DNA from: an uncultured Clostridium sp.
GTDB lineage: Bacteria; Bacillota; Clostridia; TANB77; CAG-508
Reading direction: 5' to 3'
Length of the DNA stretch: 64,000 bases
NCBI GenBank assembly: GCA_947647595.1
Contig: CANSKZ010000001.1
Coordinates: forward strand, 12,912 to 76,911
The notes below the pieces were generated by a model. That model was not told the origin of the DNA. It saw only the letters and a program-made list of their open reading frames with translations, and made no database searches. This document shows positions 49,206-54,290 of this stretch, piece by piece. The position numbers and the translations under genes were made by a program. Every line of letters starts with the position of its first letter. Positions within the stretch are counted from its first letter, which is position 1.

Positions 49206-52200
49206 ATGGATGAAAATAGTTTTGAAGAGCAAGAAAGCCAAGATACAGCACAAAATCAACAAAGTAATCAAAACGGTAGTGGAGGTACCAACGTAGGACA
49301 TAGAGCAGCAGATGCGGCAAAAGGAGTTGCTAAAAATGCTGGAAAAGTTGGGGACAAATTAGGAAGCAAAGCCGAAAAATTTCAAAACAAAGCCAATGCA
49401 CAAAAGGCAATTGCTAAAAGCAATGCAGGAACCAGAACAGGAGTAAAAGCAACAACTAAAGCTAAAAAATTAGAGCAAAAATCGGAAAAAATAAAAAAGG
49501 CAGCAGAAAAAGCAAAGAAAGTACAACAGAAAGCCGAAAAATTTGCTAAAATTGCAGCTAAAATTGGAAAAATTATAACATTTTTTGGTGTTTTCATATT
49601 AATTCTTCTCATTATCATTGGTTTGCTTGTTTTTATCATTAGTGGCTGGGGCATGTTACTAAGTGGATTTAAAGCTATAGCAGAAAAATTTTATGATACC
49701 TGTTTTGCTATCATGAATGGTGGCGAAAACAATGTTAAAGACGACGATATTGTAAATCTAATGAAAAACATTGAAGAAATGGGATACGATTTATATGGCT
49801 ATGGTTTTGTTGGGGCAGACAATGTAGATGATAACAGAAACCATGTTTACTATACCCAAGATGAAGAAGGTAAAGGAGAACTAATTGAACCACTTGAAGA
49901 TATTGATGCATACAGAAACTTGGTAGCTTATCTAATTTCAGACAATTATGCATATTATGTGAAAAATAGTAATTTTAATTTTAGGTCGATGTTTTCTGGT
50001 TCAAAATATTTTTTTGGTGGAATATTTAATAATACAGCATGGGGTTCAGGACTTATTAGTATTTATGAACAAGAGGGAGAAAATGATGAAATTACAGGAA
50101 TTAAAGGGGATCCATATGGTATTTCGATGGGAGAGCATACAGCTTTTGCCGGCTTAGGAGCTGCTGCTGGTGCAATTATACCAATACCAGGTATAGGTTC
50201 AGTAATAGGAGCTGGAGTAGGAGAGTTAATTAATGTTATAAAAAACTATGATGAAGCAACAAGTTCTATAGAAGTAAACCGAGGAAGCAAAACATTAGAA
50301 ATTACTTCAATAGGTGCTTTTCACAATAAAATACTATCTTACAGTTTAGATGGTTGGACAGGCAGATATTCTATGCCATTAGAATTTTTATTAGCAACCC
50401 ACATTGCAACAATGGCACCAGACTTGAGCTATAAATTAGCAACTACATTTAACACAGATGTAGAAATCTTGTTATGGAAGTCAGAAGGCAACACGGTTCA
50501 AGGTGGAATTCAAGTAGGGGGAAATATAATAAAATCTGAACAATTAAATACCTATTTTATAGGAGGGGAAAAGGCTTCCCATTACCTAGAGGGAGGAAAT
50601 AATACAAATACAAGTAGTCCTAGTGGTGCAGCCAATCAAGATCCGGGAAAGATTGAAAATCAAGTAGGACCTACTGCAAAATCAGACACATGCCCATTAG
50701 TAGAATTAGGGATTCCAGAGCCAGCAGGTTGTACATGTGGAACAGTAATTTCTACAGAGAATGAAAGCACTACAGAAAGTGGAAGTACTACAACACAGAC
50801 ACAAACTATAGAGGTATTTTGTAAAATTTGTCAAGATTATTTAACAATACTAAAAAATGCTACAGTTGCTGTAAATGAAAGTAAGTTTTCTACCTATGTT
50901 CCATACTTAAATAAAGTAACAGACCATTGGTTCAGAGATGTATATTTCACAGCAGGAGCAATGAATGAGGCTGGAGTTACAAACGTAGTCAAAACAGATG
51001 AAAATTATTATCAATCAACTGGCGAAATGTGGACTGAGTATGAAAAAGATGCAGATGGTGAATATGAATTATATGTATATCTAAAAGACGATACTGGAAA
51101 TTATAAATCTTCCTTTGAACAATCCGATGATAAATACTTAGTTTGCCGAAAAGAAAAGAATGGAAAAGGAGCTTATAAAATTTCAGAAAAAGCTGGTAAC
51201 TTATATGAAAAAGATGCAAATGGAAAATATAATCTATATTTATTAAAAGATGCAAATGCGGAAGATAAAGATAAGAAATATGAAAAATATGAAGATAAAA
51301 ATATTAAAGAATTTAGAGTAGGAAAAAAAGCAGTAACAGAAACAAAAGAAGCAGATTGGAATGTTTACAAACTAGATAGTACTCCATCAGAATCAGGCTG
51401 GACGCCATTTGAAATAAAGGATGATTCAAAAACAGCGATTAAGGCTATGGAAGATATAGAAGGTGCAACGCTAGTTTATAATTTAGAAAGTACAAGTGGT
51501 AAAATTACACAAACAGAAGATGGTGTCAGAGGTGAAACACATCCCGAAACGAAAAAAATGTTTTTAGATGACTATTATTTATACAATGGTTCAGGACCAA
51601 CTGCAGCTAAAATCGAAGCTGCCAAGGATGCTGTTGCTAATAAAATTATGAAAGATAATGGATATCAACAAGGACAAGAAATTACACTTTCTAAAAAACC
51701 AACTTATGCGTCAAACTATGCAAGTGGTACAAATTCTACCACGACTGGATCAAATTATGGGCAAAATCCTGATGGTACTGCTAATAATTCTCAAGCAATA
51801 AACGAAGACAAAAAAATTATATTACAAGGTGGCAGAACTGGACTACAAACCTTAATTGACTTACATAATGCTGCTTATATACCTGAAATTAAAGGATTAG
51901 AAGATATTGATATTGACGATCCAGATACTTATAGAAAAATACTAGGCAATCAAAAAATAACAGCAACTTATGAAGGTAAAACACAGACTGCAACAATTGA
52001 CGAAATTTCCGGACCAATTAACATCCTTCATAATTCACTAACAGCATTTAGCATATTGAAAAATATGCATACATTAGATGCAGAATACATATATCATGAT
52101 TTTAAAGAATTAATTGTAGAATTAGATTATTTTGACAAAGAAGATTTAACTGATGCAGAACGAGAAGTTATGATGTTTCCAATAGCAGGACTATCATCAG

Positions 52201-54290: not shown

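Follow-up and report, generated by a model that had tools for sequence, protein, structure and literature searches.

What does a very large, hydrolase-like protein do near the end of a type IV secretion system (T4SS)-like gene cluster in an uncultured gut bacterium? The question is raised by a stretch of 64,000 nucleotides (nt), hereafter the window (positions 12,912 to 76,911 of contig CANSKZ010000001.1, GenBank assembly GCA_947647595.1), from an uncultured Clostridium sp. of the TANB77/CAG-508 lineage, in which positions 49206..54290 (+) encode what we call the big protein. On balance, we favour the view that it acts as the wall breacher of a T4SS-like machine that is chromosomal and has its own pilin genes in uncultured gut Clostridia and that it may be regarded, by analogy, as a functional counterpart of VirB1, PrgK, TraG of pIP501, CwlT and TcpG. 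The role of the enzyme was to be expected; the conserved chassis on which the enzyme domains are mounted, the modular swapping of these domains, the accompanying partner gene and the kind of T4SS were not.

Anatomy of the big protein and its family

The reading frame is uninterrupted over 49197..54290 (+) in the list of open reading frames (ORFs). Since the GTG at 49197 falls within the Shine-Dalgarno sequence AGGAGG (49192..49197, +), we place the start at the ATG at 49206, 8 nt downstream of this sequence. The coding sequence, stop codon included, occupies 49206..54290 (+) as given in an earlier note, which had been made from the letters of this DNA without database searches; the length of 1,697 amino acids (aa) stated there has to be corrected to 1,694. 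An identical 1,694-aa protein is already on record as P0001, encoded by a contig of 377,845 bp. Residues are numbered from the ATG, except that numbers marked "ORF" start at GTG 49197.

The C-terminal part of the chain was proposed in the same note to hold a papain-like peptidase followed by a lysozyme-like domain, with a Pfam search as the suggested check, and both domains and both folds were recovered, the domains above the Pfam cut-offs. The first is a Peptidase_C39_2 domain (PF13529; 52527..52976, Pfam match 52560-52904, +), which scores 54.4 bits at residues 1119-1233 against a cut-off of 24. Its candidate triad comprises Cys1123 (52572-52574, in GCGPTS), His1215 (52848-52850, in GGGHF) and Asn1232 (52899-52901, in ISNPG), all on the + strand and all kept in every C39_2-bearing homologue; more broadly, Cys, His and Asn/Asp are conserved in the peptidase slot across homologues. 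Other homologues carry an NlpC/P60- or CHAP-type sequence in this slot (DCSxYVSW ... GHVNIY), with a Cys and a His of its own. Because classical peptidoglycan peptidases replace it in the same position, the C39_2 domain most likely cleaves wall peptides, as far as sequence comparison can tell.

Behind it lies the lysozyme-like domain (Phage_lysozyme2, PF18013; 53838..54269, +), with 77.3 bits at residues 1545-1688 against a cut-off of 28.2 and coverage of profile positions 3-138 of 140. In a sequence search of the PDB, its stretch GIIGNLIQES was aligned to GMLGNMQSES of phi29 gp13, which places Glu1572 (53919-53921, +), the candidate catalytic residue, on chain residue 45, presumably the catalytic Glu of gp13. 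Homologues bearing PF18013 retain the motifs G-N-x3-E-S, which includes Glu1572, and GL.QW. An AlphaFold2 model of the C-terminal 647 residues (mean predicted local distance difference test score, pLDDT, of 84) matched, in a Foldseek search, the lysozyme domain of gp13 (3csr, E 1e-4, template-modelling score 0.65 on the target) as well as the papain-like folds of phytochelatin-synthase-like Alr0975 (2bu3/2btw) and of C39-like 3erv. All motifs that had been quoted beforehand (GCGPTSTAIVLSGYG, GGGHFMVLLG, GIIGNLIQESGLDP and GLVQW) are present. The big protein is thus predicted to combine a peptide-cutting and a sugar-cutting wall enzyme in one chain. The SLT (PF01464), CHAP (PF05257), NlpC/P60 (PF00877) and FlgJ-type glucosaminidase (PF01832) domains were not found in it by Pfam, and occupy the same slots in other members of its family.

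At the other end, residues 1-122 (49206..49571, +) form a poorly conserved, net positive tail rich in Lys and Ala (25 Lys and 23 Ala in the first 125 residues of the GTG-started ORF, with 27 Lys plus Arg against 13 Asp plus Glu), which the positive-inside rule predicts to be cytoplasmic. Residues ~123-157 (49572..49676, +) are the sole strongly hydrophobic segment of the protein by hydrophobicity and are taken as its predicted membrane anchor; composition and the single hydrophobic stretch thus agree with the one N-terminal transmembrane helix behind a Lys/Ala-rich region that had been proposed. Some database names attached to tail and helix were set aside: a match to "CD1108 mobile element protein" in NCBIfam reached 19 bits against a cut-off of 100 and was treated as compositional, and Pfam matches to Synaptobrevin and TraG_N are noise from the same region.

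Between the anchor and the peptidase stretches the part that defines the family, a module of ~885 aa (residues ~158-1042; 49677..52331, +) predicted to be extracytoplasmic. Homologue matches mapped onto the query outline three conserved blocks (ORF ~150-450, 550-810 and 925-1045), and the motifs LDGWTGRY, PY..VTDHWFR..YF, DGVRGET and NMHTLDA.YIY.DFKELIVEL.YFDKEDL are invariant. The module has no family in Pfam, PHROG or NCBIfam; its model is usable (pLDDT 74.7, predicted template-modelling score 0.72) and gave nothing below E 0.1 when compared by Foldseek with the PDB and BFVD, and a family profile run against PDB sequences returned low-complexity and transmembrane noise only. The ~900 aa of unassigned function noted previously have therefore kept that status in all of these searches. 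The size of the protein had also prompted the suggestion of a scaffold or ruler across a thick wall. A ruler of fixed length is argued against by inserts of widely differing length that break up the module core in homologues; one of these proteins (P0044, 1,976 aa) carries a long pentapeptide-repeat insert (PF00805, PF13599) within the module, which accordingly tolerates large insertions. A Gly-rich hydrophobic loop inside the module (AGLGAAAGAIIPIPGIGSVIGAGVG, 50151-50231, ORF ~319-345) is found in about a quarter of homologues; it was considered as a membrane-inserting element and rejected as a lineage-specific insert of low model confidence.

A further domain of ~250 aa, overlooked in the earlier note, sits between the two enzymes (residues ~1272-1522, ORF 1275-1525; 53019..53771, +). 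This middle domain is beta-rich with helical inserts, is retained in ~60% of homologues and has no Pfam match at E up to 1. Its motifs PVTGEV..YG and IYIKEGAVIG recall M23/LytM peptidases, a likeness without statistical support: hhalign against the lysostaphin catalytic domain gave a probability of 2% and a single short alignment, of IYIKEGAVIG to DYVKAGQIIG. The zinc ligands of M23 (HxxxD, HxH) are absent from the domain, with no HxxxD before PVTGEV, and the assignment to M23/LytM was rejected.

A search of 5.8 billion proteins yielded 94 relatives of 1,000-2,300 aa. When residues 147-1047 served as the single-sequence query of an exhaustive HMMER search through 1.84 billion representatives, 552 clusters (50% identity) were recovered with E values of 1e-3 or lower and 401 with values of 1e-10 or lower, and every match with an organism name was a metagenome-assembled genome (MAG) of uncultured Clostridia or Clostridium. 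What stays constant in these proteins is the N-terminal module and the middle domain; the enzyme domains vary. Among the relatives, C39_2 occurs in 12 and PF18013 in 13, and others carry NlpC/P60, CHAP, glucosaminidase, SleB-type Hydrolase_2, Lysozyme_like, Phage_lysozyme, Amidase_3, GDSL esterase, SLT or Peptidase_M15_4, so that hydrolase domains from at least 12 Pfam families are exchanged across the family. Judged by its sequences, the family is defined by the module and the middle domain and not by the two enzyme domains. No library that was searched contains a relative of its defining module, and for this reason we count it as hitherto undescribed; wall hydrolases of monoderm T4SSs are, as a functional class, already known.

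The T4SS-like cluster and its counterparts in other genomes

The big gene is the last but one of a cluster that lies entirely on the + strand (31474..54918), with intergenic gaps of 0-37 nt from 34935 to 54918. A simple terminator scan found no + strand terminator-like site in 48900-55200, a range covering the big gene, its partner and both junctions. The cluster opens with seven divergent VirB2/T4SS_pilin paralogues in tandem (PF18895, PF04956; 31474..34913), followed by a PrgI/VirB3-like protein with two helices (34935..35285) and by a TraC/TrsD-like gene of 446 aa with one N-terminal helix (35286..36626), which has TraC-like orthologues (PF26593) and a position that fits the TrsD-like proteins of monoderm T4SSs (PMC12102498). 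Next comes a VirB4-like ATPase (36647..38636), split by an extra C near 37739 into ORFs of 369 and 309 aa; in orthologues it is a single protein of 650-660 aa (e.g. L016:3841-5820). The extra C is either an assembly error or the mark of a true pseudogene. VirB4 is closest to the Thermoanaerobacter VirB4 structure 4ag5 and has sub-threshold matches to the clostridial CD1110 and the Mycoplasma integrative and conjugative element (ICE) VirB4 families of NCBIfam, and on account of these resemblances we assign the T4SS to the monoderm type.

The segment 38646..47663 holds three paralogous polytopic proteins of 399, 1,235 and 840 aa (38646-39845, 41417-45124 and 45141-47663) and, among them, a one-helix protein of 515 aa. 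Each polytopic gene has an embedded pilin-like stretch, and the 1,235- and 840-aa proteins bear large extra domains; the three are VirB6-like by topology and show weak, sub-threshold similarity to Mycoplasma ICE membrane proteins. Two one-helix proteins of 174 and 321 aa (47679..49180), which adjoin the big gene in every T4SS-context locus, lead up to the big gene, 10.5 kb downstream of VirB4 in this tightly packed cluster, and a one-helix partner protein of 196 aa (54328..54918) follows it. Comparisons of the partner with the PDB and with the 174-aa protein, in which a VirB8/NTF2-like link was sought, gave nothing.

The cluster is flanked by housekeeping-type genes, with dus and the MazF toxin gene (mazF) upstream and rpsF-ssb-rpsR and then mraZ-mraW downstream. 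When ORFs were scanned across the window with Pfam, no relaxase, integrase or coupling-protein family scored above cut-off; such names appeared faintly, below threshold and on unrelated proteins (TraG-D_C on the C-terminal half of VirB4 with 22.8 bits, TrwB_AAD_bind on MraZ). The T4SS encoded here, chromosomal, with seven pilin genes and with no relaxase or coupling protein found in the window, is therefore not a typical conjugative one. The parallel with CwlT, PrgK and TcpG drawn in the earlier note stands insofar as the big gene does belong to a T4SS cluster, and it is limited insofar as this T4SS is not of the typical conjugative kind.

How general this setting is was assessed by a locus scan with one genome per species, which returned 65 loci. 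All come from uncultured gut MAGs, mostly labelled Clostridia bacterium or Clostridium sp., with a few Lachnospiraceae, Eubacteriales and Bacillales labels, and the samples include rabbit (Lapin), sheep, roe deer, human gut (HGUT) and mouse catalogues (MGBC, iMGMC). Clostridium sp. CAG:571 and Candidatus Scatovivens are among them, the latter belonging to order TANB77, family CAG-508 (PMC13106387). In 25 of the 65 loci the big gene lies in a T4SS cluster whose gene order is either that of the window or a reshuffled one, and the arrangement of the window recurs in three further metagenome contigs (among L066-L070), including those of a species seen on 249 contigs. The big gene stays within the T4SS cluster in the lineage of the window and in three other cluster arrangements despite the reshuffling. 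Two of these 25 loci share the downstream rpsF-ssb-rpsR flank, although the big proteins are only 37-42% identical, and the best 120 of 6,979 metagenome proteins that match VirB4 are all at least 80% identical to it.

In most loci the big gene has a homologue of the 196-aa partner behind it, and where big genes form tandem arrays the two are repeated together. Such arrays reach 4-5 paralogues (L008, L011, L014, L018, L025, L026, L038 and others), and tandem big-gene pairs also occur inside the T4SS cluster (L066). The partner is one homologous family across loci whose hydrolases are of different types.

Readings of the role of the big protein

If the big protein is the wall breacher of the T4SS-like machine, its parts can be given an order of work. 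The Lys/Ala-rich tail would stay in the cytoplasm while the single helix holds the protein in the membrane, and the ~885-aa module, together with the partner, would dock it to those components of the machine that span the membrane and the wall. Of the two distal domains, the papain-like one would cleave stem peptides or cross-links and the gp13-like lysozyme the glycan strands, and the resulting local opening of the peptidoglycan, presumably that of the cell itself, would let the channel or pilus through. There is precedent for such an arrangement: monoderm T4SSs carry membrane-anchored multi-domain hydrolases, among them PrgK, which binds the VirB8-like PrgL (PMC11323569), and in the T4SS of Patescibacteria, according to PMC12102498 (which cites PMC10633639), the homologues of peptidases and lysozymes encoded downstream of virB4 are indispensable.

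Several points weigh against this view. At least 19 of the 65 loci, and probably ~30 (~10 end too early), have no T4SS gene within 10 kb of the big gene, which means that the family is not strictly tied to T4SS genes. What connects the N-terminal module to T4SS components is gene order, and the activity and role ascribed to family members are read from sequences and models. To our knowledge, Peptidase_C39_2 is not established as a family of peptidoglycan hydrolases, and the domain could be a protease. Arrays of paralogues with shuffled hydrolases are unexpected for an enzyme that opens only its own wall. Finally, a genuine frameshift in VirB4 would mean that this strain has a broken machine.

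The loci that lie away from T4SS genes suggest another role, that of a general enzyme of wall remodelling in division, cell separation or elongation, independent of the T4SS genes that it would merely adjoin. There, 1-5 tandem big genes, most with a partner, are placed between addA-tkt and ftsE-ftsX, which are followed by two PcsB-like M23 genes. FtsEX-PcsB is the divisome hydrolase system of Firmicutes. In a crude neighbour-joining tree built from BLAST scores, the proteins of the ftsEX context group by themselves, the two contexts separate almost cleanly, and no species representative showed both, a split that may stem from relocation in one lineage or from paralogy. We nevertheless consider this role unlikely, given the retention of the big gene in reshuffled T4SS clusters described above. 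What links the family to ftsEX is adjacency, and the two neighbourhoods may be close to each other on some chromosomes, as in one locus (L019) the T4SS cluster is followed after 3 kb by an AddA-like gene.

The same arrays and swapped enzymes can be interpreted in terms of attack. The big protein would then be a weapon or host-breaching enzyme directed against the walls of other cells and displayed by or alongside the T4SS, the partner would act as a chaperone or confer immunity, and the paralogues with their exchanged hydrolases would reflect adaptation to different target walls. Consistent with this are the combination of a fixed N-terminal module with C-terminal domains as diverse as GDSL esterase, amidase and M15, the small gene next to each paralogue in the arrays, and the diversified pilin arrays without a relaxase, which resemble those of the T4SS on which Patescibacteria depend for epibiotic growth (PMC10633639, PMC12102498). 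Peptidoglycan hydrolase toxins delivered by a T4SS are known in Xanthomonas (PMC8740702). When compared with polymorphic toxins, the family shows the conserved N-terminus and the variable C-terminal enzymes, but not an adjacent gene that covaries with the toxin domain: the partner is homologous whatever the type of hydrolase, unlike immunity proteins. The N-terminal membrane anchor, with no recognisable release signal in the big protein, likewise speaks against a classical toxin-immunity pair. Nor is there any sign of hypervariability at strain level, as one species cluster (P0079) has 66 members at 90% identity or more. Taken as a whole, we doubt that the big protein is such a weapon.

It could also be the wall hydrolase of an ordinary conjugative element, an ICE, which we hold to be quite improbable. 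The affinity of VirB4 to monoderm conjugative VirB4 proteins (4ag5, with CD1110 and the Mycoplasma ICE below threshold) is in its favour, as is one related contig (L067:3028-6147) in which an HTH (helix-turn-helix) regulator, a small ORF, a tyrosine integrase and a Mob_Pre relaxase stand directly upstream of the pilins. The latter genes are possibly a separate, inserted mobilisable element, yet they keep the conjugative interpretation alive. Against it, no convincing match emerged when the integrase and the Mob_Pre relaxase of L067 were run against the window by tblastn, in keeping with the Pfam scan, and the cluster lies between housekeeping genes, with a downstream flank that two relatives share although the big proteins are only ~40% identical. 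In the abundant species on 249 contigs (L068-L070; one contig of 1.8 Mb), housekeeping genes flank the cluster and are the only genes upstream of it. Pilin arrays, moreover, do not characterise the conjugative systems described so far from Gram-positive bacteria (PMC12102498, PMC10633639).

A phage-derived tail lysin or a tape-measure-like protein of a prophage remnant, an idea that draws on the name of PF18013 (phage tail lysozyme) and on matches of the lysozyme region to a tape measure PHROG and to phi29 gp13, is hardly credible, since there are no phage tail or head genes nearby in the window, the PHROG matches do not extend beyond the lysozyme domain and a brief preceding stretch (ORF 1518-1681), the N-terminal module has no match among the predicted viral structures of BFVD, and a T4SS-like order of genes is shared by several species.

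Comparison with known systems and neighbouring genes

Returning to the proposed wall breacher of a T4SS-like machine, a close parallel is PrgK of the Enterococcus faecalis plasmid pCF10, a protein of 871 aa. Both are encoded in monoderm T4SS clusters, have an N-terminal anchor and carry several extracellular hydrolase-type domains, namely a glycosidase, a Cys/His peptidase-type domain and an additional domain without an evident catalytic site. PrgK binds the one-helix protein PrgL (PMC11323569), and the big gene is co-inherited with a small one-helix partner. The domains themselves differ, being LytM, SLT and CHAP in PrgK and C39_2 and PF18013 here, and there is no sequence homology; PrgK also lacks the ~885-aa module and serves plasmid conjugation with a relaxase and a coupling protein.

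CwlT (ICEBs1), TcpG (pCW3) and TraG (pIP501) are two-domain, glycan- and peptide-cutting T4SS hydrolases required for Gram-positive conjugation. They are several-fold smaller than the big protein, draw on other domain families (muramidase, SLT or FlgJ with NlpC/P60 or CHAP) and have no conserved N-terminal module, paralogue arrays or partner gene. In CwlT the glycosidase precedes the peptidase; the opposite order in the big protein, as had been pointed out, is confirmed here. The role of such two-domain T4SS wall hydrolases is summarised in PMC12102498.

With phi29 gp13 (tail morphogenesis protein 1) the big protein shares the lysozyme fold and the GN..ES catalytic motif, in a domain that is N-terminal in gp13 and C-terminal here. 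A peptidase accompanies the lysozyme in gp13 as well (title of entry 3csq); it is of the LytM type. In other respects gp13 is different, a soluble phage tail protein of 365 aa with an M23 metallopeptidase behind the lysozyme and ~20% identity.

The machine as a whole closely resembles the T4SS of Patescibacteria (Saccharibacteria), which is also chromosomal, has no relaxase nearby and combines a monoderm (MPF-FATA-like) VirB4, a TrsD/TraC-like gene before virB4, PrgI/VirB3, tandem divergent VirB2-like pilins and wall hydrolases downstream of virB4 (PMC12102498, PMC10633639, PMC7427843). The features by which this design is described (PMC12102498, PMC10633639) are all found here in gene content and order, on which the likeness rests, and the host is instead a member of the Bacillota (Clostridia). 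Gram-positive T4SSs are stated generally to lack VirB2 pilins, and the pilin-array design has been treated in recent papers as a peculiarity of Patescibacteria (PMC12102498, PMC10633639, PMC7427843). A paper on pilins of TANB77 (PMC11680825) was considered as a possible description of the present system and set aside, as it concerns Tad/Flp pili instead. We know of no homologue of the ~885-aa module from Patescibacteria.

The ~550 clusters thus constitute an unannotated family in which the ~885-aa module forms a fixed chassis for interchangeable wall-cutting domains, each gene coupled to a partner, and which marks a chromosomal, apparently relaxase-less T4SS with VirB2-like pilin arrays in a lineage of Bacillota. 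Its carriers include TANB77/CAG-508, which are common uncultured bacteria of the human gut with reduced genomes and have been linked to the response to immunotherapy. In these organisms, a giant hydrolase together with a conserved surface machine offers a lead to their lifestyle and perhaps to their resistance to cultivation. One could go further and speculate, at rather long odds, that reduced-genome gut Clostridia hold a vertically inherited, non-conjugative, pilus-forming T4SS of the Patescibacteria design, with giant hydrolases, diversified by swapped domains and paralogue arrays, that breach the walls of partner or prey cells and not that of the producing cell; if this were true, these abundant gut bacteria would depend on direct contact with other bacterial cells.

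Some further genes deserve mention. In the abundant species on 249 contigs, a ComEA-like gene (SLBB and HHH_3 domains; L068-L070, ~5710-6360) lies immediately upstream of the pilin array, and the Saccharibacteria T4SS region has likewise been reported to be close to competence genes. Within the window, a 482-aa ORF without a Pfam match (29738-31186, -) lies directly upstream of the pilin array. Right behind rpsF-ssb-rpsR, a second single-stranded DNA-binding (SSB)-domain protein of 218 aa is encoded (56370-57026), with the SSB domain in its C-terminal half. A single-module gene resembling those of non-ribosomal peptide synthetases (condensation, adenylation, carrier and reductase domains; 17071-21369, -) adjoins genes for a histidine kinase and an HD-domain response regulator (13780-17047, -). 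Lastly, this small, low-GC (guanine plus cytosine) Clostridia genome encodes an RCC1-repeat (beta-propeller) protein at 9601-10956.

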